From a virus (taxonomy: Duplodnaviria > Heunggongvirae > Uroviricota > Caudoviricetes), in the IMG/VR virus record IMGVR_UViG_2548876954_000011: a stretch of DNA of 37,865 nt, one strand, 5' to 3'. Each line of letters opens with the position of its first letter. Within the stretch, counting starts at the first letter, position 1. Positions 1 to 37,578 of this stretch are shown in pieces. A program made the translations under genes and the position numbers. The notes under the pieces are model-generated. The model did not search any database, was not told the DNA's origin, and saw only the letters and a list, made by a program, of their open reading frames with translations.

Positions 1-1032
1 TCAAAAACTTGCTATTGATGTTGGTAGTGTTGCCAGCGGATTAAACCGTAATGCAGTTTCCAGATGATCTGGTGCCAGATGTGCGTAACGCATAGTCATT
101 TTTATATCGTGGTGTCCGAGAATTTTTTGTAAGGCGAGAATGTTTCCACCCGACATCATGAAGTGCGCCGCAAACGTATGGCGCAGAACGTGTGTGAGTT
201 GACCGCGAGGGAGCACGATAGACGTTTTTTCCATCACGGATAAAAATCGAAAATAGCAGTCTGTGAAGAAATTGAACCCATCAAGCGCCATGATCTCTTC
301 GTAAAGCTCTTTACTGATAGGGATGCTTCTGTTTTTCTTCCCCTTCGTTCTTACAAAGGTAATTCGGTATTTGGTCACCTGTGAGCGGGTAAGATTTACG
401 GCTTCACGCCAGCGTGCGCCTGTGCTTAAGCATATCTTAACTACCAGTGCCAGAATTGGGTCCTGACGTTTGCAATCAGCCAGTAATTCAACAATCTGCT
501 CATGGGTAAGCCATGCCATCTCTTTTTCTGCGATGGTGAATTTTCGCATGTTCTCCAGTGGGTTCGGATACGACCATTCGCCCAGGCGGGATAGTTCGCT
601 AAAAACACTACTTAGATAGCTTTGCTCCAGGTTAATGGTGACCGGGCTTGCTCCTTTCTTCCATTTCTCGCTGAAGTAGATCTCTCCTGTCAGGCGTTTA
701 TCTCGATAGTGGGCAAACATTTTAGATGTGAGATCGGTTGCAAGGGGATTGCCCAGAGCGTCAACCATCAACAGCAGTTTGTCATAGACATGCTGGCCAG
801 CTGTCAGAGATTTACCATGTAGTTTGAACCATAGTTCAACCACGTCTTTCAGTGTTCGACGATCCACTGATTCGCCCAGCCAGGGCTTTGCTTCGGTTTC
901 TTCCATCGTGTGACGCTCAAAAGCCAGAGCTTCGCCTTTGGTGGCGAATTGTTTACGCACACGACGTCCGCTACGTCCGGCGGGGTAACATTCGCAAAGC
1001 CATTTTCCTGTGGTGAGTTTTCGTACTGCCAT
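1..1032 (-). CDS. int: Tyrosine site-specific integrase (P2/186 Int family)
   Basis: 343 aa; C-terminal catalytic region ...HVLRHTFAAHFMMSGGNILALQKILGHHDIKMTMRYAHL (R-H-R-Y type); stop codon is window positions 1-3; position next to the repressor as in 186. Confidence 0.9.
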   Translation of the reverse strand: MAVRKLTTGKWLCECYPAGRSGRRVRKQFATKGEALAFERHTMEETEAKPWLGESVDRRTLKDVVELWFKLHGKSLTAGQHVYDKLLLMVDALGNPLATDLTSKMFAHYRDKRLTGEIYFSEKWKKGASPVTINLEQSYLSSVFSELSRLGEWSYPNPLENMRKFTIAEKEMAWLTHEQIVELLADCKRQDPILALVVKICLSTGARWREAVNLTRSQVTKYRITFVRTKGKKNRSIPISKELYEEIMALDGFNFFTDCYFRFLSVMEKTSIVLPRGQLTHVLRHTFAAHFMMSGGNILALQKILGHHDIKMTMRYAHLAPDHLETALRFNPLATLPTSIASF

Positions 1033-1113
1033 AAAAAATACCCTCCAGTGGAGAGTATTTTTGCTGTATATATAACCAGTGTCAATGTATTAGATACATG
1101 TTGTCATACATCA

Positions 1114-2091
1114 TCACTTTTGGGTAACAATGTCATCATTTGCTGCTGATTTTTTATCTGCAAGTGTGCCTAGAATGTTAAATAAATTTGGAGGTGGCTG
1201 CGTTTTATCTGCGAATGCAGAATTAGCTGACATGTTCCAATCTTTAAACACATCAATAGCATCTTGTTTTGTCGCAGTTGAACCATAAATTTGTAAGAAG
1301 ACCTCACCAAACATTAGAGCGTGTTGTCTGTCTTTTCTTATGATTGCTTCATGTGTGTATTTTTTTGAATTGTTTAAACAAAAATAAGAAAGCCAAGAAA
1401 GTAATGCAACCCCAAGTAAGCCCCTAGTGAAATAATAAAAAAGTTCAATGGGGGTGGCGTCTTTTATATCTATTTTATAGAAAAATGTTAAAAAGGCGGC
1501 ACTTATAGATAATAATGATAAAAGTATTCCGGCTATCGCCCAATTGTAAGACATTGCAGTGAAATCCTTATCGTCCTGATGTAATTTTGCTTTGACACCC
1601 TGCACATATTCAGGAACTTTTTCGTCAATTTTATTTTGTTGAATTTTGCTTGAAAGTTTTTGGTTTTGAAGCTTTAACTCTTTGTTTTGGGCGTGTTGGA
1701 GTTTTAGCTGTGATGCTAGTTTTTCTTTACTGTCCATTGCAGTTAATAACTCTATCTGCAACTTGTTGAATTGGTCTAACTGCGAATTATGGCTTTTTTG
1801 AAACTCGCGTAGTTTATGTTCTAACTCATCAATTTTTAAAAGGTACTTATCTGCTTCACTGTTTTGCAATGATGTATGGTCAGGCATGAAGGACTCATAC
1901 ATATATTTTTTTTTAGAAAAATTTCGACTGTAAGCATCAAGCAGTATATCGAATTCATCAAACTCTAGAGAATCCAATAGGTTTTTCAAAGTATTATAGG
2001 TGTCATTAGATAAATGTGATTTTAATTCTCCTAATTTAATACTTCTAGACGTATATTTTTCACTATTACTTTTATAATCAGAACCACTCAT
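1114..2091 (-). CDS. Hypothetical coiled-coil protein with two predicted transmembrane helices; cargo gene inserted between repressor and integrase
   Basis: 325 aa ORF; Lys/Glu/Gln-rich heptad-like N-terminal half (…LQIELLTAMDSKEKLASQLKLQHAQNKELKLQNQKL…), hydrophobic segments AIAGILLSLLSISAAFLTFFY and GLLGVALLSWLSYFCL; visibly AT-rich compared with the phage backbone; same strand as repressor and int. Confidence 0.6.
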   Translation of the reverse strand: MSGSDYKSNSEKYTSRSIKLGELKSHLSNDTYNTLKNLLDSLEFDEFDILLDAYSRNFSKKKYMYESFMPDHTSLQNSEADKYLLKIDELEHKLREFQKSHNSQLDQFNKLQIELLTAMDSKEKLASQLKLQHAQNKELKLQNQKLSSKIQQNKIDEKVPEYVQGVKAKLHQDDKDFTAMSYNWAIAGILLSLLSISAAFLTFFYKIDIKDATPIELFYYFTRGLLGVALLSWLSYFCLNNSKKYTHEAIIRKDRQHALMFGEVFLQIYGSTATKQDAIDVFKDWNMSANSAFADKTQPPPNLFNILGTLADKKSAANDDIVTQK

Positions 2092-2103
2092 TCCAATATC
2101 CTT

Positions 2104-3048
2104 TTATAATTCTTCTATCAGAATAAAATTGCATTTTGCAATAACATCAATATCTGAAATTTTACATTCAAATGATAAATCATTGTCTGAAATTTTTAAT
2201 CTTCCTACAGGAATTCTAGTTAGGGTTCGAATGCTCACTTTCCCTTCTATTTCAACAATCCATTTACCATCTGTAATTTCATCGAATGATTGATTACATA
2301 GGTATGTTTTTTTTTCGGTGCTAACAATCAATGGTAATTGGATTGAGTCTGGTAGTAATGCTTTATCAAGCATATAGAAATTTGAATCAAATAGATTCCC
2401 GTCAGTAATTTTTTTGTGAGTAATAGCAATTACATCATTTCTTGCATCGTCAAACTTTGGGCCTTTACCAGTAGTTAGCCACATTAGTGAAGTACCCGTT
2501 TCGAGAGCGCACTTAATTATCCAGTCTGAAGGAAAAACATCACGCATATATCTTGTGGCTAATGTGCTTTTTGAAATACCTAAGTGATCAGCTAAGGCTT
2601 GGCGAGTCTTATAACCGTAAGCCCTAACAATTCGCTCTATTGCTTCCTTGCCACCCCGAGAATAATCAATGGTGTTTTCATTATCGAACTTTGGTTGTTT
2701 ATAGTGAACGTCATGATAAGAACCATCTTCGGAGTGTGTTTCAACATGCTGTTCTGGTGAAGGGGATGGCATTTGTTCGTCATCATCTGAACCAAATGCT
2801 AGCCATTTAATTGATGCTCCAGTTTCCATTGAGCAGATAACAACCCAATCTGCAGGAAATGTATCGCGGGCATATCTGTTAGCCATCGTGCTTTGGGAAA
2901 TACCTAGATGGTTACAGAATGCTTGGCGTGACTTGAAGCCATAAGCCATGAGTATCCGCTCGATTACTTTCTGACCACCGCGATTTTGTATGACAACGGC
3001 TTTCATATCGTCATCAATATGGCGAAATGTGAATTTTTGAGTTGACAT
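2104..3048 (-). CDS. CI-type immunity repressor candidate with two tandem CI-like HTH domains plus a C-terminal domain
   Basis: 314 aa; residues ~24-86 (GGQKVIERILMAYGFKSRQAFCNHLGISQSTMANRYARDTFPADWVVICSMETGASIKWLAFG) and ~132-194 (GGKEAIERIVRAYGYKTRQALADHLGISKSTLATRYMRDVFPSDWIIKCALETGTSLMWLTTG) are about 60% identical to each other and look like the phage CI-repressor N-terminal domain; divergent from the Apl/Cox-like gene, i.e. in the cI position of 186. Confidence 0.65.
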   Translation of the reverse strand: MSTQKFTFRHIDDDMKAVVIQNRGGQKVIERILMAYGFKSRQAFCNHLGISQSTMANRYARDTFPADWVVICSMETGASIKWLAFGSDDDEQMPSPSPEQHVETHSEDGSYHDVHYKQPKFDNENTIDYSRGGKEAIERIVRAYGYKTRQALADHLGISKSTLATRYMRDVFPSDWIIKCALETGTSLMWLTTGKGPKFDDARNDVIAITHKKITDGNLFDSNFYMLDKALLPDSIQLPLIVSTEKKTYLCNQSFDEITDGKWIVEIEGKVSIRTLTRIPVGRLKISDNDLSFECKISDIDVIAKCNFILIEEL

Positions 3049-3136
3049 ATTCTTTATGTGAACCTATTCTCCGTTTTGTGATGTTGTTATCACGATTAAA
3101 ACCAGCTCACCACAAGCTAAAAGGAGATGTTGCATC
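3049..3136. promoter_or_regulatory. Divergent lysis/lysogeny switch region (pL-like and pR-like promoters and operators expected)
   Basis: 88-bp intergenic region between the divergent repressor and Apl/Cox-like genes; AGGAG Shine-Dalgarno at 3122-3126 ten nt before the ATG at 3137. Individual operators were not resolved. Confidence 0.4.
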
Positions 3137-3358
3137 ATGACCCCTAACATTTCAATAACTCTGAATACGCCACATGTCACAATTGAGCGTTATAGCGAAC
3201 TTACTGGTCTTTCAATCGACACAATCAACGATATGCTGGCTGATGGCCGCATCCCTCGACATCGTCTCCGGAAGGACAAGAAAAGAGAAAAGGTAATGAT
3301 CAACCTTGCTGCTCTTACCGTTGATGCACTTACTGATTGCAATGTTGTATTCAACTAG
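3137..3358 (+). CDS. Small Apl/Cox-like excisionase or early regulator
   Basis: 73 aa basic protein, first gene of the rightward early operon, divergent from the repressor; family assigned from position only. Confidence 0.45.
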
Positions 3359-3390
3359 TTCCATTTTGGGATATGTCAGGGGTGTCGACC

Positions 3391-3900
3391 ATGTTTGATT
3401 ACCAAGTTTCCAAACATCCACATTTTGATGAAGCCTGTCGTGCATTCGCACTGCGCCACAATCTGGTGCAACTGGCAGAACGTGCAAGCATGAATGTGCA
3501 GATTCTGCGGAACAAGCTGAACCCAGCTCAACCTCATTTATTAACCGCACCAGAAATCTGGCTGCTTACCGATCTGACTGAAGATTCAACGCTGGTAGAT
3601 GGTTTTCTGGCACAGATTCATTGTCTGCCATGTGTACCGATTAATGAGGTGGCAAAAGAGAAACTGCCACATTACGTCATGAGTGCAACCGCAGAGATCG
3701 GGCGTGTTGCTGCAGGTGCGGTATCTGGCGATGTAAAAACCAGTGCCGGTCGTCGTGATGCCATCAGCAGCATTAATTCTGTAACACGACTGATGGCGCT
3801 GGCGGCTGTTTCATTGCAGGCCCGTTTACAGACTAACCCTGCGATGGCGAGTGCAGTTGATACTGTGACTGGCCTCGGTGCTTCATTCGGTTTGCTGTGA
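3391..3900 (+). CDS. 186 CII-like regulatory protein
   Basis: ATG at 3391 gives 169 aa ([49 protein letters not shown]…), which matches my recollection of the phage CII (CP76-type) family and the length of 186 CII; the ORF-track start at 3337 is in frame but probably upstream of the true start. Confidence 0.7.
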
Positions 3901-3907
3901 GGTGCTT

Positions 3908-4204
3908 ATGCTGACGAAAGAACCATCATTTGCATCGCTGCTGGTAAAACAAAGCCCGGCAATGCACTACGGTCACGGCTGGATCATGGGAGAGGATGGT
4001 AAACGCTGGCATCCATGTCATTCACAAGATGAATTGCTGTCTGAATTGACCACGAGAAAATGGAGAAAGTCCAAATGTATGCGGCAGAAAGTGAAGTGGT
4101 TTATCAGTTTCGTTACAGAGGGGAGAGTTATTCAGTACCTGAAGATGATTTGCTCTGTTGCTATCCGTCGTTGTCGGGCGATGGTAGCTACTTTTTCACG
4201 CTAA
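3908..4204 (+). CDS. Hypothetical early protein (extent uncertain)
   Basis: ATG at 3908 within the 3878-4204 ORF; N-terminal ~50 aa look protein-like, C-terminal part is W/C/R-rich and overlaps the better-looking 4060-4299 ORF in another frame. Confidence 0.3.
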   Translation: MLTKEPSFASLLVKQSPAMHYGHGWIMGEDGKRWHPCHSQDELLSELTTRKWRKSKCMRQKVKWFISFVTEGRVIQYLKMICSVAIRRCRAMVATFSR

Positions 4205-4299
4205 AGGATGGAACCTTTATACGTGGTGAAAAAGTACAAGAAGTGATGCGTATAAAGACATCACCTCTTGAATGTTATCGGCGAAGTATTTATCGGTAA
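4060..4299 (+). CDS. Hypothetical early protein
   Basis: 79 aa ORF with a balanced composition (MEKVQMYAAESEVVYQFRYRGESYSVPEDDLL…); position corresponds to fil/dhr-type small early genes of 186-like phages, homology not established. Confidence 0.4.
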   Translation: MEKVQMYAAESEVVYQFRYRGESYSVPEDDLLCCYPSLSGDGSYFFTLKDGTFIRGEKVQEVMRIKTSPLECYRRSIYR

Positions 4300-4538
4300 C
4301 GATCTATCAGTGTCTGTATCAGATGAGTGAATTCTTGTTGTTTAACCGAACCTAAAGGAAGTTTGTTTAATTCTTCGCGGAGGAGCTCAAAAAATGCAGA
4401 TTGATTTGCTGAGTCAGTTCGAAATAAGGAGTGGATCAGACCTGAAACAAGAATTCGTTGAACAGCAACCTCATCGCGAAGACTGGAGATCTCGTTTTCA
4501 AGTTGCTCTAAACGCTCTCTTTCAACCGGGTTCAACAT
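4290..4538 (-). CDS. Hypothetical small coiled-coil protein, antisense to the early operon
   Basis: 82 aa (MLNPVERERLEQLENEISSLRDEVAVQRILVSGLIHSL…); AGGAA-type Shine-Dalgarno about 8 nt upstream on the minus strand; AT-rich region. It overlaps a less protein-like plus-strand ORF (4394-4630). Confidence 0.4.
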   Translation of the reverse strand: MLNPVERERLEQLENEISSLRDEVAVQRILVSGLIHSLFRTDSANQSAFFELLREELNKLPLGSVKQQEFTHLIQTLIDRYR

Positions 4539-5788: not shown

Positions 5789-6642
5789 GTACCATCCTGA
5801 AATGGGCGGGTAATAAAACTGCCATTATGTCCGAACTGAAAAAACATCTTCCTGCTGGCCCGCGACTGGTTGAACCTTTCGCGGGTTCCTGTGCTGTGAT
5901 GATGGAGACGGATTACCCCAGCTATCTTGTTGCGGATATTAATCCTGATTTAATCAACCTCTATAAAAAGGTTGCTGCTGATTGCGAGGCGTTTATATCT
6001 CGTGCCAGAGCTTTATTTGAGGAAGCAAACAGGGAGTTGGCTTATTACAACATAAGGCAGGAGTTTAATTACTCCACTGAAATTACTGATTTCATGAAAG
6101 CGGTATATTTCCTGTATCTCAATCGTCATGGTTACCGTGGGTTATGTCGTTATAACAAGAGCGGGCATTTCAACATTCCATACGGTAATTATAAAAATCC
6201 GTATTTCCCTGAAAAAGAAATTCGCGCATTTGCAGAGAAAGCCCAGCGAGCAACGTTTATCTGCGCCAGCTTTGATGAAACGCTGGCGATGCTGCAGGTG
6301 GGGGATGTGGTGTATTGCGATCCGCCTTATGACGGTACGTTTTCCGGCTATCACACTGACGGCTTCACTGAAGATGACCAGTATCACCTGGCATCTGTTC
6401 TTGAATATCGATCATCAGAAGGTCATCCAGTCATTGTTTCTAACAGTGACACATCCCTGATCCGTTCGCTGTATCGAAATTTCACTCACCACTACATCAA
6501 GGCAAAACGCAGCATCGGCGTGTCGGCTGGCGAGAGTAAATCTGCAACAGAAATCATCGCTGTTTCCGGGCCGCGCTGCTGGGTGGGATTTGATCCTTCG
6601 CGTGGCGTGGATAGTTCTGCCGTGTACGGAGTGCGTGCATGA
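5785..6642 (+). CDS. dam: DNA N6-adenine methyltransferase (Dam family)
   Basis: [23 protein letters not shown]…EPFAGSCAV (AdoMet motif) and [11 protein letters not shown] (DPPY catalytic motif); about 285 aa. Confidence 0.85.
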
Positions 6643-9053
6643 GCCATGCTGATATGAACAACTGCAGCGGCTTTAACGAGGCCGCCGCAGCATTCTCATG
6701 GAACAGCCCGAAAAAGGCTATTAACCCTTATCTGGACCCGGCGGAAGTTGCGCCGGTTTCTGCGCTTTCAAACCTGATCACTCTGTACGCTGCCGATAAC
6801 GAGCAGGAACAACTGCGCCGCGAGGCACTGAGTGATCAGGTCTGGGAGCGTTATTTCTTTAATGAATCCCGTGATCCTGTCCAGCGCGAAATGGAGCAGG
6901 ATAAGCTCATTAGCCGGGCAAAGTTGGCGCATGAGCAGCAGCGTTTTAACCCGGACATGGTCATTCTGGCAGACGTTAACGCCCAGCCTTCCCATATCAG
7001 CAGGCCGCTGATGCAACGTATTGAATACTTCAGCAGCCTTGGCAGGCCAAAGGCTTATTCCCGCTATTTGCGTGAGACGATTAAGCCATGTCTGGAACGG
7101 CTGGAGCATGTACGCGACAGTCAGCTATCCACTTCTTTTCGCTTTATGGCAAGCCATGAAGGGCTGGACGGCCTGCTGATTCTGCCTGAAATGAGTCAGG
7201 ATCAGGTGAAACGCCTGTCCACCCTTGTTGCTGCGCATATGAGCATGTGCCTTGATGCAGCTTGTGGCGATTTGTATGCCACCGATGACGTTAAGCCAGA
7301 AGAAATCCGCAAGACATGGGAAAAGGTGGCAGCAGAAACCCTGCGACTGGATGTCATACCGCCTGCGTTTGAGCAACTCCGCCGGAAAAGAAACCGCCGT
7401 AAACCCGTGCCCTATGAACTCATTCCGGGTTCGCTGGCGCGTATGTTGTGCGCCGACTGGTGGTACCGGAAATTATGGAAGATGCGTTGCGAATGGCGGG
7501 AAGAGCAGTTGCGTGCTGTTTGCCTGGTCAGCAAAAAAGCATCTCCCTATGTCAGCTATGAAGCCGTGATGCATAAACGTGAGCAGCGCCGTAAGTCGCT
7601 GGAGTTTTTCCGTTCTCATGAACTGGTGAACGAAGACGGCGACACGCTGGACATGGAGGATGTGGTAAACGCCAGCAGCAGCAACCCTGCGCATCGCCGC
7701 AATGAGATGATGGCCTGTGTTAAAGGTCTGGAGCTTATCGCGGAAATGCGCGGTGACTGCGCCGTTTTCTACACCATCACCTGTCCGTCACGTTTCCATT
7801 CCACGCTAAATAACGGCAGGCCCAACCCGACCTGGACAAATACGACGGTAAGACAAAGCAGTGATTATCTGGTCGGCATGTTTGCTGCATTTCGTAAGGC
7901 GATGCACAAAGCCGGATTGCGCTGGTATGGCGTGCGGGTGGCTGAGCCGCATCATGACGGTACAGTTCACTGGCACCTGTTGTGTTTTATGCGCAAAAAA
8001 GATCGCCGCACCATTACTGCTTTGTTGCGTAAGTTTGCCATTCGTGAAGACCGCGAGGAGCTGGGTAATAACACAGGACCACGCTTTAAGTCTGAGCTGA
8101 TAAACCCGCGCAAAGGTACGCCAACAAGCTACATCGCGAAATACATCAGTAAGAACATTGACGGGCGTGGTCTGGCTGGCGAGATCAGCAAGGAAACGGG
8201 TAAATCCCTGCGTGATAACGCTGAATACGTTAATGCCTGGGCGTCTCTTCATCGTGTTCAGCAATTCCGCTTCTTTGGCATTCCGGGGCGTCAGGCTTAC
8301 CGTGAACTGCGATTGCTGGCTGGTCAGGCGGCAAGGCAACAGGGGGACAAAAAAGCAGGTGCGGCGGTACTGGATAACCCACGCCTTGATGCCATCCTGG
8401 CTGCTGCTGATGCTGGTTGTTTTGCCACCTACATCATGAAGCAGGGCGGCGTACTGGTTCCCCGCAAATATCACCTCATCAGAACCGCTTATGAAATCAA
8501 CGAAGAGCCGACCGCCTATGGCGATCACGGCATTCGTATTTATGGCATCTGGTCACCCATTGCAGAGGGCAAGATCTGCACTCATGCAGTGAAGTGGAAA
8601 ATGGTTCGTAAGGCCGTTGACGTTCAGGAGGCGGCAGCCGACCAGGGCGCTTGCGCCCCTTGGACTCGTGGCAATAACTGTCCCCTTGCTGAAAATTTGA
8701 ACCAACAGGAGAAAGATAAATCAGCTGATGGGGACACCAGAACGGATATTACCCGCATGGATGACAGGGAGTTGCACGATTACCTGCACAGTATGAACAA
8801 AAAAGAGCGCCGGGAACTGGCTGCAAGGTTACGTCTGGTGAAACCGAAACGGCGTAGAGACTACAAACAGCGAATTACAGACCATCAACGACAGCAGCTC
8901 GTCTATGAACTGAAGTCCAGAGGATTTGATGGCAGCGAGAAAGAGGTCGATTTACTCCTTCGCGGCGGCAGTATTCCATCAGGAGCAGGCTTGCGTATCT
9001 TCTATCGGAACCAGCGTCTGAAGGAAGATGATAAGTGGCGGAACCTGTATTAA
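6639..9053 (+). CDS. A: Replication initiation endonuclease (P2 gpA-like rolling-circle initiator)
   Basis: 804 aa; HUH-type motif [10 protein letters not shown] (around 7963-7992) and active-site tyrosine region YIAKYISK (around 8131-8154); position after dam in the early operon. Confidence 0.9.
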
Positions 9054-10052: not shown

Positions 10053-11135
10053 ATGATAAACGTTACAAACGAAATGCTCATTGATGTTGTCAGTGATGCT
10101 CTTACCGGGAAGAGGGAAAGTCTCCTCATGCGGTTGCGGATTATGGCAAAAAAACTAAAAAAAGAATCTCCTGAATTAGCGGGTAAATTAGAAGATTTAC
10201 TTATTAATACAGGTGGCGCAATTGCAGTCGAAAGGGCTAATCCAGTTGTTCCTAAAATAACACCTGTTGATGCGGATACAAGACAAAAGCTGCTAGTTGA
10301 AACATATCCTGTGGTCATTGATGTTGAACCTGTTTGGCCAACAAAAACTGATGTTCAACTGAATCGATTTGTGGCTGAGTGGGAAATGAAAGAACGCCTT
10401 TATAAAGAAGGGTTGCATCCGTCCAAATCTCTTCTTATGGGAGGACCACCCGGTGTGGGGAAGACTTTGGCTGCAAAGTGGCTCGCTTTTAAACTCGATA
10501 TGCCATTGTTAACATTAGATCTCGCAAGTGTAATGAGTAGCTACTTGGGGAAAACGGGTAATAATATTAAGGCAGTCCTCAATTATGCTTCGTCATTCCC
10601 TTGTGTACTGCTTCTTGACGAATTTGATGCGATTGCTAAAAAAAGGGATGATGCAACAGATGTTGGAGAACTAAAAAGATTAGTTACAGTATTATTGCAA
10701 GCAATTGATGAATGGCCAAATACGTCTGTTCTTATAGCAGCAACTAACCATGCGGAGCTGCTTGATCCTGCTGCATGGAGAAGATTCGATCGAGTTATTG
10801 ATTTTGAATATCCAACACAAGACCTAATGAGAAGATATCTCTGTTCTAAAAATATTGGAGATAGCTTATCGTACTATATTGCTACAAAACTCGAAAAAGT
10901 TTCATATGCAGTTCTTGAGAGAGCTATAAATCAAGCTAAAAGAAATGCCATTATAGAAGATATTCCTTTAAGTTCAGCTTTAATTGATGAGTTGTTAGAT
11001 GGCGTGTCACTTGATGATGTTATAAAAAACATGTCAAACAACAATGTATCACAAAGAAAAATCGCTTTAGATTTGGGGATTTCAAGGTCACAAGTACGTA
11101 AGGTTTTGACGGTTGAGGATGAAGACAATGAATGA
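10053..11135 (+). CDS. AAA+ ATPase (IetA-like), first gene of the cargo cassette
   Basis: 360 aa; Walker A GGPPGVGKT (around 10440-10466), Walker B LLLDEFD (around 10610-10630); C-terminal HTH-like segment SQRKIALDLGISRSQVRKVL; AT-rich; stop overlaps the protease start (ATGAATGA). Confidence 0.85.
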   Translation: MINVTNEMLIDVVSDALTGKRESLLMRLRIMAKKLKKESPELAGKLEDLLINTGGAIAVERANPVVPKITPVDADTRQKLLVETYPVVIDVEPVWPTKTDVQLNRFVAEWEMKERLYKEGLHPSKSLLMGGPPGVGKTLAAKWLAFKLDMPLLTLDLASVMSSYLGKTGNNIKAVLNYASSFPCVLLLDEFDAIAKKRDDATDVGELKRLVTVLLQAIDEWPNTSVLIAATNHAELLDPAAWRRFDRVIDFEYPTQDLMRRYLCSKNIGDSLSYYIATKLEKVSYAVLERAINQAKRNAIIEDIPLSSALIDELLDGVSLDDVIKNMSNNNVSQRKIALDLGISRSQVRKVLTVEDEDNE

Positions 11136-13320
11136 TAAAAATATGCTTCTTGGCTATGGTGAAACACTAACTAACCCTGTTAAACTTAACAGAGGTGGAG
11201 GTGAAAAGAATAAACCTTACTCTTATTCAGAAAATAAACCAGTGATATCTGCTCAACTGGAAGAGTTGATTGAGGAAATTAATACCCTTCCATTGTTAGC
11301 AATGCCTGAAGGTAAGGCTGTAGCAAAATTTGTTTTGCATCCGGCATTCTTAGCAAAAAGTTATTTTCCAGTAAGTCTTTTTGAGCGATTTTCCCTAGAA
11401 AGCATAGGCAGTAAGGCTGTAAAAGTAAAACCTAGAAAAGATATTAAAAAAAGAGGGCGAAAAGAGGAATACACTACAGCGTGTATTTATGTTTCTGGCA
11501 AAAAAGAAAGTTTTCAATCATTCTTAGACTCTGTAAATCAAGATACCCTAACGAAAGGGCAGCAAAATGATTTTGTCACCTTAGAAAATATTTCAATACT
11601 GGAAGTTTCAGATAAAGTAAAAACGATTAATAGCAATGAAGTTATGAGTATTGAGGTCGCCTTACATACTCCTGATACAAGTTCCTCTATTGTCGATAGT
11701 TTTGAAGTTTTTGCTTCGCAAAATGGTGCTGTTATAGATAAGGCAAGAAGTATAAAGGTTAAGGGGCTAACCTTTATGCCTATTAAGGCTAGTAAAGATG
11801 TAGCTTTAAAAGTTGCAGAGTTTTCATTTCTCAGGACTTTGAGAGAACTTCCTGAATTAAGGCTAAGTGAGCCTGTTATATCACGTTCTGTGATTCAAAC
11901 ATCTAACCTTAGTTTACCATCTGAAGGAGCGGTAAACCCACATATAAAGGTTGCCATATTCGATGGTGGATTGGGGATCGATGATTTCAATCCTTGGGTA
12001 ACAGAGTACACTTTCAACGGTAATGCTAGTACTAATGCAAAACTTCTTTCTCATGGACAAGATGTCACCTCTACTGTGTTATTTGGTGTTCTTGGCTCTG
12101 AAACGGAAAAATTAAGTGTTCCTTATTGTAATATTGACCATTATCGTGTACTGGATTCCAATGTTAATAACTCAGATGTCGATCTTTTTGACGTTCTGAT
12201 CCGTATTAAAAGTGTATTAGAACAAAAAAAATATGATTATATCAATCTGAGCTTAGGACCTAGATTACCTGTTGATGACGATGACGTGCATGTGTGGACC
12301 TCAACTCTTGAGGAGATACTTGCATCAGGAGAAACACTTTGTACTGTCGCGGTTGGAAATGATGGTCAGCTGCCTGCCAAGTTAAATCGAATTCAACCAC
12401 CTGCTGATTTAGTTAATGGTCTGTCAGTAGGTGCAGCAACCTCTTTATCTGATAGTTGGGAAAGATGTTCTTACAGTTGTATTGGTCCTGGACGAAGCCC
12501 TGGCTTTGTGAAGCCTGATGGAGTTGCATTTGGAGGACATTCTGATGAGCCATTCCAGGTATACAGCCCTATGGTTAATGGTCTTGCCCGCACTGCGGGG
12601 ACTAGCTTTTCAGCTCCATTAGTCCTGAGGCAAGCAATCGCGTTAAGTGCTTCTCTAAATTACAACATTACACCACTTACGGCTAAAGCTCTGCTTATAC
12701 ATCATGCGGAGAGCAATAATATCAATCGTGCTGAAGTTGGTTGGGGACGATTTCCTCATGATCTTAGTGAAGTAATATTTTGTGATGATGATGAAGTTAA
12801 AGTTATATATCAAGGTACTTTAAAACCATCACAACACATGCGAGCACCTATTCCGTTTCCAGATGTACCTATGCGTGGATGTGTAAATTTAAGAGCGACA
12901 TTCTGCTTTTCCAGTCCTGTAGATGCGGAACATCCTTTGAATTATACAAGAAGCGGTCTAGAAGTAACCATGAGAAAAGGTGTTTCAGATAGTTCCGGGT
13001 TAACGTTTCCTCTTTTTAATCTAAAAAATGTTTATGCAGATGAAAATGAGCAACGTGTTGATGCACATAAATGGGAGACTACGTTAAGAAGTGAACACAA
13101 ATTTAAACCGAATGAGCTGACAAACCCATGCTTTGATATTATCTACTATGGTAGAGACTGTGGTATGCCTATTGATGTTGACGAGTTAGAAGAACTACCA
13201 TATGTTCTTGTCGTGACTTTATCTGCTGAAGAAATGCCGGATTTATATAACCTAATTAGGCAGAAATATCAAACCTTACAGCCTATACAAGTTCAACAGC
13301 AAATTATGTTACGTACTTAA
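11128..13320 (+). CDS. Subtilisin-like serine protease (peptidase S8 family, IetS-like), probably cytoplasmic
   Basis: 730 aa from the ATG at 11128 (GAGGA about 9 nt upstream; in-frame alternatives at 11113 and 11119); S8 catalytic motifs in the right order: D in VAIFDGGLG (codon 11962-11964), H in LSHGQDV (12052-12054), oxyanion N in AVGNDGQ, S in AGTSFSAP (12604-12606); no N-terminal signal peptide evident. Confidence 0.85.
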   Translation: MNDKNMLLGYGETLTNPVKLNRGGGEKNKPYSYSENKPVISAQLEELIEEINTLPLLAMPEGKAVAKFVLHPAFLAKSYFPVSLFERFSLESIGSKAVKVKPRKDIKKRGRKEEYTTACIYVSGKKESFQSFLDSVNQDTLTKGQQNDFVTLENISILEVSDKVKTINSNEVMSIEVALHTPDTSSSIVDSFEVFASQNGAVIDKARSIKVKGLTFMPIKASKDVALKVAEFSFLRTLRELPELRLSEPVISRSVIQTSNLSLPSEGAVNPHIKVAIFDGGLGIDDFNPWVTEYTFNGNASTNAKLLSHGQDVTSTVLFGVLGSETEKLSVPYCNIDHYRVLDSNVNNSDVDLFDVLIRIKSVLEQKKYDYINLSLGPRLPVDDDDVHVWTSTLEEILASGETLCTVAVGNDGQLPAKLNRIQPPADLVNGLSVGAATSLSDSWERCSYSCIGPGRSPGFVKPDGVAFGGHSDEPFQVYSPMVNGLARTAGTSFSAPLVLRQAIALSASLNYNITPLTAKALLIHHAESNNINRAEVGWGRFPHDLSEVIFCDDDEVKVIYQGTLKPSQHMRAPIPFPDVPMRGCVNLRATFCFSSPVDAEHPLNYTRSGLEVTMRKGVSDSSGLTFPLFNLKNVYADENEQRVDAHKWETTLRSEHKFKPNELTNPCFDIIYYGRDCGMPIDVDELEELPYVLVVTLSAEEMPDLYNLIRQKYQTLQPIQVQQQIMLRT

Positions 13321-13358: not shown

Positions 13359-14408
13359 CTATGTTGATTGTGGGTCATCGTTTATTAAGTTATATTTTTC
13401 AAAATGGATAATATTAATTCCTAACCATTCATTAAATTCCTGTAATCGTTTTTGTAAAGGCATTAATTCATTTCGAACAAACACTCGACTCGCCTTCTCC
13501 ACATCCCCAAACCCCCCAACATTATTCGGCATAATCCCCATCATTTGCGGCGGCACACGATGCGCTGCCATCATGTCATCGCGGCTGACATTTTTGATAT
13601 TCAGAAACTCATCCTTCGCCGCGACTTCTGACAACGGGATGATCTGAAGCCCGTCCTTTTTGCCGTTAGGCGAGTACATAAACAGGTTGCGGAAGTTGCC
13701 AGGGCCTTTGGCGCTTTTCATCGCATTGCGGAGGTTGTTCACATCCTCCTGGTTCTGCGCGGCATCGGTCATGTACATGATGAAGCCTGCATGACTGCCG
13801 TTAATGTAATACTTGCGGCGGAACAGCGTGGCGGACTCGTTGAGCAGGGCTGATGGAATGGCAGAAAGATAACCTGGCAGGCCGTAGATCTCCTGGTTGA
13901 TGTCCGGTTCCATCAGATGAAAAATGCTGCCTTTCGTGAACTGATACGGCTGGGTTGTCATACCGTATTGCACAAACCAGTAGGTATCCAAGTCTAACCC
14001 GCGTCGGGTGTATTTTGCCAGAGCAGGCTCAAGGGCGATAACTTCACCGAAGCGGTTCGTGCGTTTCTCCAGGTAGGCGTTACCAAATACCAGATAGTCC
14101 TGCACAAAACGTGAAAAAGCCTGCTGGCTGAGCAGCGGGTGAGGGATGTAGGTACTGGTCAGAATGTTGCATTTCACCGCAATTGGTGAACTGTGATGCA
14201 CGGCGGCGCGGAAGGTGCGCGCCAGTCCGTCAAAGCTTACTGGCGGCTCATACCAGCGATCTGTCTGTACGCATTCCACATAGTCCAGCAGTTCGCGGCG
14301 GTCCAGAACAGGAACGGGATCGCCGAAGCTGAATGCCTCTGCTGAAGTCTGGCTTTTATGCTGGGTCTGGTTCTGCGACGCAGCGCGGTTCTTCTTACTC
14401 TTTCCCAT
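13359..14408 (-). CDS. Q: Portal protein (P2 gpQ-like)
   Basis: About 349 aa; first gene of the leftward late operon, overlapping the terminase stop (TGATG); length and position match P2 Q. Confidence 0.85.
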   Translation of the reverse strand: MGKSKKNRAASQNQTQHKSQTSAEAFSFGDPVPVLDRRELLDYVECVQTDRWYEPPVSFDGLARTFRAAVHHSSPIAVKCNILTSTYIPHPLLSQQAFSRFVQDYLVFGNAYLEKRTNRFGEVIALEPALAKYTRRGLDLDTYWFVQYGMTTQPYQFTKGSIFHLMEPDINQEIYGLPGYLSAIPSALLNESATLFRRKYYINGSHAGFIMYMTDAAQNQEDVNNLRNAMKSAKGPGNFRNLFMYSPNGKKDGLQIIPLSEVAAKDEFLNIKNVSRDDMMAAHRVPPQMMGIMPNNVGGFGDVEKASRVFVRNELMPLQKRLQEFNEWLGINIIHFEKYNLINDDPQST

Positions 14409-16174
14409 CAAAAAATCTCCACAATATTGCTGGTATTGGCGGACTCGCCCTGCAGCGGTTCGTTAAACAGTGCGTGCATTGTTGCCCAGGCCAGATCGGC
14501 ATGGCTGGCTTCTTCGCTGCGGCTGGCTTCATAGGTCGGGCGGTTGCCGCTGGCGGTGGTGGCGCGACGGATTGCCATAAATGACTGCGCTATGTCGGTG
14601 TGTCCGGCGTCAAACTCCAGACGACGGTGACTGATAATGTCGTAGGCTTTGAGTACCAGGGCGTTTTTAACGTTGGGGTTGTAGACAAACTCCCGGACGG
14701 CAGGAAAGAACGCTTTCACGTTCTCGTAAACCCCGTGACCAACACCTGTCGAGTCGATGCCGATGTATGTCACGTTGTACTGTTCGGTCAGTTTTTTGAT
14801 GGCGTCAGCCTGGGCGCGGAAGTCCATCCCGCGCCACTGGTGACGCTCAAGAATGCGGAACTTACCGCCCGGCACGGCTGGCGGTGCCACCACCACGCAC
14901 CCGGCGCTGTCGCCGTTTTGCGTACCTTTTGCCGGGTCATAACCGATCCATACTTCGCGCCAGCCAAACGGGCGCAGGGCCAGTGCATGAAAGTCGGTCC
15001 AGACTTCCCAGCTGTCCACCATGCACGCCTGCAGCTCGCTGAGCGGGAACACGGACGCGAGATCGTCCACGAACTCGCACATCAGCAGGTTCTGGTATTC
15101 GTCCGGGCTGTACTCCATGCGCAACTGGTCAAGGTCGAACAGGTTACAGCCGCCGCGCACCGCATCTTCCACGGTGACTATCTGGCGGTATTGCCCGTCT
15201 GCGCACAGCAGGCCGGGGGCCAGATTGCTATGGGACAGGTCGATGTCCACCTTGTCGGCTTTGTTGCGTCCACGGTTGAACAGCGCACCGGACCAGAACG
15301 GATAAGCACTGTGGGTCAGGCTGGATGGCGTGGAAAAATAGGTTTGTCGCCATTTTTTGTGAATAGCCATACCGGAAGCCACTTTGCGCAGCTCCTGGAA
15401 TTTCGGTATCCAGAAATATTCATCCAGATACAGGTTGCCGTGGTAACTCTGGGCCGTGCGGGCATTGGTGCCGAGGAAGTAAAGCGTGGCCCCGTTGGGA
15501 AGCACCATCGGATCGCCTTTCAGCTCCACCTCCACTTCTTTGGCGAAGTCGATGATGTACTGTTTAAAGACGTGGGCCTGTGCCTTACTGGCGGAAAGGA
15601 AAATCTGGTTACGTCCGGTTAGCAGGGCGTCAATCAGGGCTTCACGGGCAAAATAGAAGGTCGCGCCGATCTGGCGTGACTTCAGCAGGTTGCGGATGCG
15701 GTTGGTTTTTCCGGCTTCCCACCAGTGGCGCTGGTAGTTGAACATGGAGGAATGGAAGATTTCTTCCAGCTTCTCAATCTGCTCATCGGTGAAGACATTT
15801 TTTTCCGGCTGACGGCGCGGGCCTTTGTTGCGGTTGGCGACGTTAGGGTTTAAGTCAGCTTCGTTGCCGCCATTGTTAAACTTGCCGATCCGCGCGTGGC
15901 GCTCAGACTGGCGCGCCAGCAGGTCAATCTCTTTGAAATCTTTCCCTTCTTTGTGCTCCTTCATAATGAGCTGGCAGTAGCGTGCGGCGGTGGTGAGCTG
16001 CATCTGATCCAGCGGCCCATAGTCACCCCACTTGTCGCGTTTTTTCCAGCTGTGAACGGTTGCAACTTTCTCGCCCAGCATTTCAGCAATGCGGGCGACG
16101 CGGTATCCCTGAAAGTACAGCAGCATGGCCTGCCGACGGGGATCGAGATCTGCGGGTGTCAGTGTGGTGTTCAT
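14408..16174 (-). CDS. P: Terminase large (ATPase) subunit (P2 gpP-like)
   Basis: 588 aa (P2 P is about 590 aa); N-terminal HTH-like region, ATPase and nuclease regions; divergent from the O gene. Confidence 0.9.
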   Translation of the reverse strand: MNTTLTPADLDPRRQAMLLYFQGYRVARIAEMLGEKVATVHSWKKRDKWGDYGPLDQMQLTTAARYCQLIMKEHKEGKDFKEIDLLARQSERHARIGKFNNGGNEADLNPNVANRNKGPRRQPEKNVFTDEQIEKLEEIFHSSMFNYQRHWWEAGKTNRIRNLLKSRQIGATFYFAREALIDALLTGRNQIFLSASKAQAHVFKQYIIDFAKEVEVELKGDPMVLPNGATLYFLGTNARTAQSYHGNLYLDEYFWIPKFQELRKVASGMAIHKKWRQTYFSTPSSLTHSAYPFWSGALFNRGRNKADKVDIDLSHSNLAPGLLCADGQYRQIVTVEDAVRGGCNLFDLDQLRMEYSPDEYQNLLMCEFVDDLASVFPLSELQACMVDSWEVWTDFHALALRPFGWREVWIGYDPAKGTQNGDSAGCVVVAPPAVPGGKFRILERHQWRGMDFRAQADAIKKLTEQYNVTYIGIDSTGVGHGVYENVKAFFPAVREFVYNPNVKNALVLKAYDIISHRRLEFDAGHTDIAQSFMAIRRATTASGNRPTYEASRSEEASHADLAWATMHALFNEPLQGESANTSNIVEIF

Positions 16175-35245: not shown

Positions 35246-36931
35246 TTATCCTAATCCTGGCCATACCATGACGATGATTGTCCCTGCCAGCGTCAGCAGG
35301 ACGTTGGCGATTGCATAGGTGCCCGCATAGCCCAGCGCCGGGATGTTACTGCGAGCTGTATCACTGATGATCTCCATTGCCGGCGCGCAGGTGCGTGCGC
35401 CCATCATTGCGCCGAACAACAGTGCGCGGTTCATTCGCAATACATAAGCACCGAACAAGAAACAGATAACCACTGGCACAAGACTGACAATCAATCCGGC
35501 AATCAACATCTGACCGCCAATCGCGCCCAGGCCGTTATTAATACCGCTACCGGCGCTCAGACCAACGCCTGCCATAAACACCATTAAGCCGAACTCTTTC
35601 ACCATGCTTAATGCACCCTGCGGAATGTAACCGAAGGTCGGGTGGTTAGCGCGCATAAATCCCAGCATAATTCCGGCGAATAACAACCCGGCAGCGTTCC
35701 CCATGCCGAAACTGAATGTGCTGAACTGGAAGGTGATCATCCCGATCATCAGCCCAATAACAAAGAAGGCGCAGAATGCCAGCAAGTCAGTGACCTGGCT
35801 GTGAATCGAGATAAAGCCGATGCGATCGGCGATGGTTTTTACGCGACGGGCATCGCCGCTGACTTGTAAAACGTCACCTTTGTTAAGCACGACGTTGTCA
35901 TCTATCGGCATCTCAATCTGGCTACGAATGACGCGGTTAAGGAAGCAACCGTGATCGGTCAACTTCAGTTGTGCGAGACGTTTGCCCACGGCGTTATGGT
36001 TTTTAACGACCACTTCTTCAGTGACGATACGCATGTCGAGAAGGTCACGATCGAAAACTTCTTTGCCGTTACGGAAGCTGGGATCGAGTCGTGCGTGGGC
36101 GTCGGGATAGCCTACCAACGCTATTTCATCGCCCATTTGTAGCACAGCATCACCGTCTGGATTCGCCAGAATCCCGTTACGTCGAATACGTTCAATGTAG
36201 CAGCCAGTTTGTCGATAAATACCCAGTTCACGCAGATTTTTGCCGTCGGTCCAGGCCACCAGCTCCGGGCCGACGCGGTAGGCGCGGATCACCGGTAAAT
36301 AAACCTTACGGTTGGCATCAGTGTCCAGACCACGTTCGCGGGCGATTTGCTGGGCGCTGGTCTGTAAGTCCTGATGCTGCAATTTCGGCAAGTAACGCGC
36401 ACCAACAATCAAACTCACCAGACCGATTAAATAGGTTAAGGCATACCCGAGGCTCAGATTATCCAGTGCCAGTGAGAGCTGCCTGCTTTCCATGCCGGAA
36501 TGACGCAGTGTATCGCCAGCACCGACCAGAACCGGTGTCGACGTCATAGAGCCAGCTAACATACCGGCCGTCAGGCCAATATCCCAGCCAAACAGCTTAC
36601 CTAACCCTAAGGCGATCACCAGCGCACTGCCAACCATCACCAGTGCTAACATTAGGTAATTTTTCCCATCGCGAAAAAAAATGGAAAAAAAGTTCGGTCC
36701 GGCTTCGACCCCGACGCAGAAAATAAACAGCATAAAGCCAAGATTAAGCGCGTCGGTGTTAATGCTGAAATGTTGTTGGCCTAATAACAGCGATACGACT
36801 AAAACGCCAATGGAATTACCCAGTTGGATCGAACCAAGTCGTAATTTCCCGAGACATAGCCCAAGCGCGAGGACCACAAATAATAACAGAATGTAATTCC
36901 CATTTAACAATTCGGCGACGTTTATATTCAC
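35246..36931 (-). CDS. ybjL: Putative transport protein YbjL (host)
   Basis: 561 aa, N-terminus [39 protein letters not shown]… matches the E. coli YbjL inner-membrane transporter in length and sequence as I recall it. Confidence 0.85.
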
Positions 36932-37200: not shown

Positions 37201-37578
37201 GTGAAACATAAACAACGTTGGGCGGGGGCAATTTGCTGTTTTGTCCTCTTCATTGTGGTGTGTCTTTTTCTGGCGACGCACATGAAAGGCGCTTTTCGGG
37301 CTGCCGGGCATCCTGAAATCGGTTTGCTATTTTTCATTCTTCCTGGTGCAGTTGCCAGCTTCTTTTCACATCGTAGAGAAGTCCTGAAACCTCTGTTTGG
37401 CGCAATGCTGGCGGCACCCTGTTCGATGCTCATTATGCGGCTGTTTTTTTCACCGACGCGCTCATTCTGGCAAGAGCTGGCATGGTTATTAAGTGCGGTG
37501 TTCTGGTGTGCGCTGGGGGCATTGTGTTTCTTATTTATCAGTAGTTTGTTTAAACCACAGCACAGAAAAAATCAATAA
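37201..37578 (+). CDS. ybjM: Inner membrane protein YbjM (host)
   Basis: 125 aa hydrophobic protein between ybjL and grxA, as in the E. coli K-12 gene order. Confidence 0.7.
   Translation: MKHKQRWAGAICCFVLFIVVCLFLATHMKGAFRAAGHPEIGLLFFILPGAVASFFSHRREVLKPLFGAMLAAPCSMLIMRLFFSPTRSFWQELAWLLSAVFWCALGALCFLFISSLFKPQHRKNQ

Follow-up and report, generated by a model that had tools for sequence, protein, structure and literature searches.

A cargo gene between cI and int of a 186-like prophage encodes a conserved two-helix membrane module and is a candidate for lysogen-expressed defence

What function is served by a gene of 325 amino acids (aa) that stands between the repressor gene cI and the integrase gene int of a 186-like prophage was asked of a 37,865-nucleotide (nt) stretch of caudoviricete DNA (IMG/VR record IMGVR_UViG_2548876954_000011; hereafter the window). 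The protein joins a hypervariable N-terminal half to a conserved module with two transmembrane (TM) helices (2TM; residues 141–300), and relatives of this module were found outside prophages, fused to immune domains. The explanation favoured here, tentatively and at a little under an even chance, is that the gene is an accessory moron in a cI-int hotspot, probably transcribed in the lysogen, and that its product would be a single-protein defence system with the module as an oligomerising membrane effector and the N-terminal half as sensor. Judged from its sequence, the gene is a good candidate for a lysogen-expressed anti-phage gene.

A sequence-only reading of the window had recognised no family for the protein. 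This was amended by a full-length match to PHROG 2628, an Enterobacterales-wide family annotated as of unknown function (E = 1.9e-72; residues 27–320 against profile positions 26–310 of 314). A protein search returned 141 homologues at E ≤ 1e-3, with overall identity down to ~35% among those aligned; their organisms, wherever given, belonged to Enterobacterales genera, and nearly all were annotated 'hypothetical protein'. Because tblastn against 50,697 deposited phage genomes gave no match to the 325-aa protein, the family is known essentially from prophages, and no published description of it was found in the literature. A family member was detectable in at least 151 of 5426 complete E. coli genomes (~3%) and a close allele of the gene itself in seven; the integrase type, at the rcdA/ybjL site, was present in 1134. 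The uropathogen CFT073 carries a family member of 323 aa (WP_000377448.1) in the same cI-int slot (locus L024, 2915–3886), and E. coli Ec1120 is a 99.3%-identical lysogen.

Selection was estimated from the ratio of nonsynonymous to synonymous substitution rates (dN/dS) among close E. coli alleles. Values were 0.38–0.43 for the whole gene, 0.13 for the module and 0.5–1.1 for the N-terminal half (for comparison, cI 0.17 and int 0.10). With 141 homologues and these ratios, overall and in the module, the gene was taken as real and not as a chance open reading frame (ORF), and the module is, by its own ratio, under strong purifying selection. Column conservation was 0.20–0.36 over residues 1–140 and 0.49–0.91 over residues 141–300, where the motifs QQxRIDEKIPxYV, F(T/S)RGLLG (in TM2), KYTHESIxRKDRQHALxFGxxFLQIYG and VFKDWNMS..SAF..PP are found. 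DNA homology to the prophage that encodes P0052, a 36%-identical homologue, covers window positions 21–1448 at 87.6% identity, taking in int and the gene's 3' half, and then stops. Since this homology breaks in mid-gene, the N-terminal half has been swapped by recombination. A division into sensor and effector is proposed on the basis of this exchange and of the difference in dN/dS between the two halves.

The module was then followed beyond the family with a profile of residues 140–325, searched against 1.84 billion representative proteins. Matches fell into 479 clusters (50% identity) at E ≤ 1e-3 and 310 at E ≤ 1e-10, with the module at or near the C-terminus in all among the matches listed. 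TIR_2 was the largest class of N-terminal partner in the distant relatives: 25 of 140 representatives grouped together by their N-termini, and both scanned members of that group carried TIR_2; a Pfam scan placed TIR_2 in 9 of 75 distant relatives (E down to 8.5e-19), and TIR domains were present in ~50 of 113 module matches of a second search. The remaining partners included EAD11, an MgtE_N-like helical domain and several unknown domains. In three metagenomic contigs (L015, 243–3731; L016; L017) a gene for an EAD11-2TM protein lies directly upstream (124 bp) of a gene for a 766-aa Mrr_cat+nSTAND3 NTPase, and the two genes may form a STAND system that acts through a membrane effector. Two TIR-2TM genes with readable neighbourhoods stand alone, in surroundings that look mobile and defence-like, near HEPN_AbiU2, NERD, an integrase and transposases. 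Across the superfamily alignment only H257, A258, G262, W285 and N286 were invariant, with E248, R255, F261, F282 and F293 nearly so.

The recurrence of the membrane module in fusion with TIR and EAD11 immune domains indicates a role in biological conflict. Residues 141–300 are, on these profile matches, an un-named and widespread module, and its link to TIR- and EAD11-associated proteins is new here. A broader proposal, held with less confidence than the favoured explanation and regarded as doubtful, is that the module is an un-named immune effector domain with an E..R.HA..FG / WN motif, carried by interchangeable triggers (TIR, EAD11 with STAND, or a prophage coiled-coil sensor), and that int and the gene's conserved 3' half would jointly serve as a recombination arm for sensor swapping in lysogens. 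The prophage protein would then be a compact and naturally modular sensor-effector system, encoded by one gene and made from the repressor operon.

The roles could also be reversed. The 2TM module would then be a membrane sensor or anchor, responding for example to perturbation by phage ejection or holins, and output would come from the N-terminal partner, as NAD+ depletion by TIR in the relatives and as protein-protein output through the coiled coil in the phage protein. In single-protein systems the catalytic output usually lies with the TIR domain, and TIR is N-terminal to the module in the fusions; the polar motif after TM2 (E248, R252-K253-D254, H257, D284-W285-N286) also resembles a binding or allosteric site more than a pore lining. 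The N-terminal half of the phage protein is an unlikely effector, however, being poorly conserved and free of any recognisable enzymatic or toxic domain. EAD domains, which according to Kaur et al. in 2020 reportedly tag effectors for recruitment to NTPases, do so by definition in the Pfam description (PF19964), which puts the module on the effector side. This arrangement is accordingly given only a slim chance.

Under the favoured explanation, the hairpin module of residues 141–300 would oligomerise and compromise the inner membrane, and the resulting depolarisation or leakage would lead to an abortive outcome. The three-helix bundle and coiled-coil stalk of the N-terminal half would act as sensor and regulator, keeping the effector inactive until triggered and setting which invader triggers it; in the distant relatives TIR or EAD11/STAND would take over the trigger role. 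The lysogenic-conversion function (such as superinfection exclusion or abortive infection) that the first reading had put forward is partly borne out, by the accessory status of the gene, by its position with no terminator-like site before int, by the fusions of its module to immune domains and by searches of Pfam, NCBIfam, PADLOC, PHROG and the PDB that revealed no homologue with a known non-defence function; its statement about the family needed amending.

Protein anatomy was examined by heptad analysis, hydropathy and AlphaFold2 (AF2), and the coiled-coil N-terminal half, two TM helices and C-terminal domain read earlier from the letters held up. Residues 1–180 contain 13.9% K, 13.9% L, 11% S and ~8% each of D, E and Q, and a single heptad register persists over residues ~71–133, consistent with a coiled-coil stalk. 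AF2, run with a 96-sequence alignment, returned an all-helical protein (mean predicted local distance difference test score (pLDDT) 74.7, predicted template-modelling score (pTM) 0.36) in which a disordered linker (62–77) precedes a very long helix (78–204) that leads directly into TM1; TM2 extends as a cytoplasmic helix to residue 269 and is followed by helices 275–292 and 303–316. Hydropathy gives a two-helix hairpin, for which an N-in/C-in orientation is predicted because the 10-residue loop is acidic, the stretch after TM2 is basic and the 180-residue N-terminus has no signal sequence. With this orientation and a periplasmic loop of only ~10 residues, nearly the whole protein would be cytoplasmic. 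The cytoplasm is where phage products would be sensed, which was counted in favour of defence by a triggered protein.

The same topology bears on superinfection exclusion, the main rival to a membrane effector, in which an inner-membrane hairpin in the lysogen would block genome entry (at the tape-measure or ejection channel, or through a host factor) and the cell would survive. Inner-membrane location and the presumed expression from the lysogenic operon are typical of superinfection exclusion proteins, and the 325-aa protein has no enzymatic domain in Pfam or NCBIfam. K139 encodes its exclusion protein Glo at the cI-int position. In K139-like Vibrio phages the equivalent position is a reported defence hotspot (Rousset et al., PMC9122126). 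Against exclusion, the periplasm would see only ~10 variable residues, and both the conserved and the variable surfaces are predicted to be cytoplasmic; the module is moreover fused to cytoplasmic TIR and EAD11 domains of intracellular signalling systems, which agrees less well with a passive block to entry than with an effector that is triggered. Exclusion is therefore regarded as unlikely.

The content of the slot was compared across phages and prophages with int ~90–98% identical at the DNA level, and with phage 186, whose int is only distantly similar. The slot holds a 558-aa PD-Lambda-1 in Escherichia phage vB_EcoM-813R9 (PADLOC E = 3e-120; DUF4041 + T5orf172), a KAP-family P-loop NTPase and an extra cI-like gene in EPEC E2348/69, a 63-aa ORF in ATCC 8739, W5-6 and K_EC180, an unrelated 349-aa protein in Klebsiella phage 4LV2017, and no cargo in phage 186. 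Because the cargo differs among elements with near-identical int, the cI-int slot is a true hotspot. The 325-aa gene has the same-strand position between repressor and integrase, in a slot of variable content, that marks such cargo. It is missing from phage 186 and from most prophages with this int type, so the view of it as an accessory insertion stood and that of a conserved core gene was rejected. That the slot carries PD-Lambda-1 and the KAP NTPase in int-similar phages and prophages was counted in favour of a defence role. In a 2026 survey, the integrase-primase interval held 8% of P2 defence systems (PMC13586616).

Against Klebsiella phage 4LV2017, homology is interrupted by a low-GC cassette that takes in the cargo gene and the 3' third of cI. 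Phage_CI_C (cI residues 209–306) is encoded inside this cassette, which suggests that the C-terminal domain of cI and the cargo are exchanged as a single block. This arrangement, with its possible tie to repressor type, could speak for a role in lysogenic conversion or phage physiology other than defence, such as modulation of envelope, division or stress, or membrane tethering of a cI or Int process. The family was seen only in the cI-int slot in every Enterobacterales context examined, and its coiled coil weakly matches cytoskeletal and division proteins, one homologue being named ZapB by a source. Ten further occurrences, every context examined, had the order cI-gene-int in a 186-like prophage (E. 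coli with P0052, Dickeya, Serratia, a JGI isolate genome, Klebsiella, four closer E. coli, among them SA53-3 and 20KM2222, and CFT073), and the neighbouring cI had either a single helix-turn-helix (HTH) domain (187–199 aa) or two (312–314 aa). The family thus has no fixed repressor partner, since homologues adjoin both types alike; the coiled-coil matches are sub-threshold and compositional, the module recurs in distant relatives that lie outside prophages and have immune domains, and the gene is absent from phage 186 and from the majority of prophages that have this integrase type. A non-defence role is accordingly thought improbable.

Expression in the lysogen is expected because the gene is inserted in the cI-int operon without a terminator. 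In phage 186 (NC_001317) cI and int overlap by one base (22433), in agreement with the earlier statement that the two are adjacent in 186-like phages, and are annotated in a single lysogenic operon, cI-int-orf69, transcribed from pL/pE with a terminator after orf69. In the window the AT-rich, same-strand ORF described earlier was present at its exact coordinates between repressor and integrase. A gap of 12 nt separates the cI stop codon (2104–2106) from its ATG and it ends 81 nt before int; all three genes are on the minus strand, and a consensus scan found no terminator-like site on that strand between cI and int. Both this absence and the position of the gene agree with co-transcription with cI from pL in the lysogen, which is probable. 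GC content is 0.27–0.35 across ~1050–2400 as against 0.45–0.55 in most other 300-nt intervals of the first 8 kb. On the opposite strand beyond cI lie apl/cox (3137..3358) and then cII (3337..3900). The promoter scan yielded no more sites than expected from shuffled sequence and no promoter claim is made. The -35 box of the putative site directly upstream of int coincides with the left border of the variable cassette, where homology to phages with other cargo ends (1088–1090), and int might keep this putative promoter whatever the cargo. Coordinates of the features are collected in Table 1.

Table 1. Features at the cI-int junction of the window and segments of the encoded 325-aa protein, with the basis of each assignment.
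Feature	Position	Strand	Basis
325-aa gene (plus stop codon), PHROG 2628 member	1114..2091	-	ORF list, ATG start; PHROG match; 141 homologues
Integrase, downstream gene of presumed lysogenic operon	1..1032	-	Pfam Int_N + Phage_integrase
cI repressor, 314 aa, upstream gene of presumed lysogenic operon	2104..3048	-	Pfam Phage_CI_repr x2 + Phage_CI_C
AAGGA Shine-Dalgarno sequence, 7 nt 5' of the ATG of the 325-aa gene	2099..2103	-	Read from sequence
Promoter-like site TTGACA-17-AAAAAT directly upstream of int (putative)	1057..1085	-	Consensus scan
Low-GC variable cassette relative to Klebsiella phage 4LV2017: cargo gene + 3' third of cI (Phage_CI_C)	1091..2461	.	blastn breakpoints 21-1090, 2462-3500; GC profile
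Residues 1-65, small three-helix bundle, variable among homologues	1897..2091	-	AF2 helices 4-22, 29-40, 44-65, pLDDT ~80-87; conservation 0.2-0.35; dN/dS 0.5-1.1
Residues 78-140, variable coiled-coil stalk, start of helix 78-204	1672..1860	-	Heptads; AF2 pLDDT 86-96; dN/dS 0.5-0.7
Residues 141-300, conserved pre-TM helix + 2TM hairpin + cytoplasmic helices	1192..1671	-	Conservation 0.65-0.91; profile search; superfamily alignment; dN/dS 0.13
TM helix 1, residues ~184-206	1474..1542	-	Kyte-Doolittle, 19-residue window, up to 2.25
Short acidic periplasmic loop, residues 207-216	1444..1473	-	1 K vs 3 D/E in residues 207-222
TM helix 2, residues ~217-240, conserved R223-G224 motif	1372..1443	-	Hydropathy; invariant alignment columns
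Residues 241-300, conserved cytoplasmic helices with KYTHEAIIRKDRQHALMFGEVFLQIYG and VFKDWNMS..SAF..PP	1192..1371	-	Alignments; AF2 helices to 269 and 275-292

Several results weigh against the favoured explanation. PADLOC-DB v2.0.0 gave no family at E ≤ 1 for the 325-aa protein and none for the homologues P0052 and P0097, and Pfam and NCBIfam gave no defence model or significant match for the 325-aa protein. SLATT models (Pfam SLATT_1-5/fungal and NCBIfam) did not match it at E ≤ 1, and no SLATT was among the top 25 families listed for 36 isolated modules. Structural searches returned generic helical hairpins only. No EAD11 was detectable in the neighbouring nSTAND3 NTPase by pairwise blastp or phmmer. 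The two AF2 models reach moderate confidence (pLDDT 75 and 68, pTM 0.36 and 0.47) and, as monomers, say nothing on oligomers or pores. The N-terminal dN/dS is not convincingly above 1 and could reflect relaxed constraint on a coiled coil, not an arms race, and the 2TM module might serve the TIR fusions as a sensor or anchor instead of an effector. Guilt by association with the hotspot is imperfect, the slot also holding cargo of unknown role, including the 63-aa ORF.

Other search results were as follows. Matches to HAUS-augmin3, DUF7603, SMC, FtsB and PalH were rejected as sub-threshold, compositional coiled-coil or TM noise. A PDB sequence search with two profiles gave nothing below E ~0.09, and Foldseek against BFVD gave a single borderline match, to an uncharacterised phage protein (E = 3.7e-4, TM-score 0.35). 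Among the 36 isolated modules, CyanoTRADDas_TM (PF20712), likewise a 2TM domain and attached to a conflict-system adaptor, was matched by 4 (best E 0.04) and DUF2207_C (PF20990) by 7 (best E 0.0027), all below the curated cut-offs; neither matched the 325-aa protein at E up to 1, and these matches probably reflect TM composition.

By presumed mode of action the closest analogues would be SLATT-type effectors, together with RexAB, BstA and K139 Glo. SLATT 2TM effectors (of CBASS, and ThsH of type VII Thoeris) resemble the 325-aa protein in having a 2TM hairpin followed by cytoplasmic helices, and they occur with nucleotide-signalling immune domains much as relatives of the module are fused to TIR. 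They have been proposed to oligomerise into membrane-breaching assemblies (bioRxiv 10.64898/2025.12.03.692087). The 325-aa protein differs from them in its coiled-coil N-terminus and in having no partner gene that generates a signal, and Foldseek matches to SLATT were non-significant (E 0.24–0.56). Association with a nucleotide signal was seen as TIR_2 fusions in distant module relatives, the 325-aa gene having no such domain or neighbour; NCBIfam SLATT_1 was matched marginally (E = 1e-3) by 1 of 75 distant relatives. Membership of SLATT was rejected by the sequence test, despite the 2TM hairpin and cytoplasmic helical extension.

PD-Lambda-1 occupies the same slot on the same strand, in a phage with 95.5% identical int DNA, and is also a single-gene system. 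It differs in being an unrelated protein (DUF4041 + T5orf172/MUG113) with no TM hairpin, and its defence activity was reportedly tested experimentally by Vassallo et al. in 2022, whereas the 325-aa gene is a candidate. Single TIR-2TM proteins (~320 aa; Vibrio, Pseudoalteromonas, Geodermatophilus) share the C-terminal module with its E...R.HA..FG, WN and F motifs, and a validated 'TIR+TM' system exists in E. coli (PMC11350192). In the TIR-2TM proteins a TIR_2 N-terminus replaces the bundle and coiled coil, identity within the module is ~20–30%, and the two with readable neighbourhoods lie outside 186-like prophages. Lambda RexAB, BTP1 BstA, K139 Glo and the variable int-repressor region of cluster N mycobacteriophages provide the precedent of an accessory gene in or beside the immunity unit that is expressed in lysogens and guards them against other phages. 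RexB, a membrane protein for which depolarisation of the cell has been proposed, has four TM helices and depends on RexA; BstA is a cytoplasmic DNA-binding protein, and Glo is periplasmic. RexAB, BstA and Glo have no sequence relationship to the 325-aa protein.

Neither the gene family nor its module has been described before, but the gene belongs to a familiar category, that of hotspot morons in prophages whose membrane protein has a variable sensor region, and there are many candidates of this kind. Should the prediction hold, the gene would represent a new single-gene defence family present in ~3% of complete E. coli genomes, including CFT073, and in many other Enterobacterales. Its membrane effector module, invisible to Pfam, NCBIfam and PADLOC, would be common to TIR- and STAND/EAD-based systems, and the cI-int junction of 186-like coliphages would be a third defence hotspot besides the two classical P2 ones. 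Natural sensor swapping within 325 aa would offer a convenient system for how specificity is encoded. Should it fail, the gene would be one more uncharacterised prophage moron.

Elsewhere in the prophage, an IetA/IetS pair was found at window positions 10053–13320 (plus strand), comprising an AAA+ ATPase (10053–11135; PADLOC IetA, E = 7e-84) and a protease-like protein (11113–13320; IetS, E = 2e-48). It is flanked by an ORF at 6639–9053, presumed to be gpA from position and size, and by a minus-strand ORF at 13359–14411, presumed to be the portal gene; an 804-aa ORF of the same length at the presumed gpA position in related prophages has a Phage_GPA domain. By these assignments IetA/IetS occupies the classical P2 gpA-portal defence hotspot and the prophage carries a recognised defence system. 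Because of this pair, the prophage was regarded as a defence-carrying element.

The repressor itself differs from that of phage 186 (192 aa, one HTH) in having two tandem HTH domains. Doubled cI genes (309–314 aa by gene length) adjoin family members in E. coli prophages, with 312 aa and both Pfam domains beside P0052 and 927–945 nt in SA53-3, 20KM2222 and CFT073. EPEC E2348/69 (O127:H6) has two separate cI-like genes instead; its slot (locus L026, 4599–7685) holds the 505-aa KAP NTPase and the second cI-like gene, of 307 aa, beside a 189-aa cI.

Host chromosome makes up the right end of the window, with a YbjL-like Asp-Al_Ex/TrkA_C permease (35246–36931, minus strand) and YbjM (37201–37578), and rcdA, ybjJ and ybjI lie on the int side in relatives; the prophage was therefore placed at the rcdA/ybjL site. 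An 82-aa, leucine-zipper-like ORF (4290–4538, minus strand) with no Pfam or PADLOC match lies between plus-strand ORFs that follow cII (3878–4204 and 4060–4299; putative early operon) and a DUF5347 gene. The equivalent place in a Klebsiella relative (L012) is occupied by a different opposite-strand ORF, of 152 aa, and the site may be a second small variable slot.

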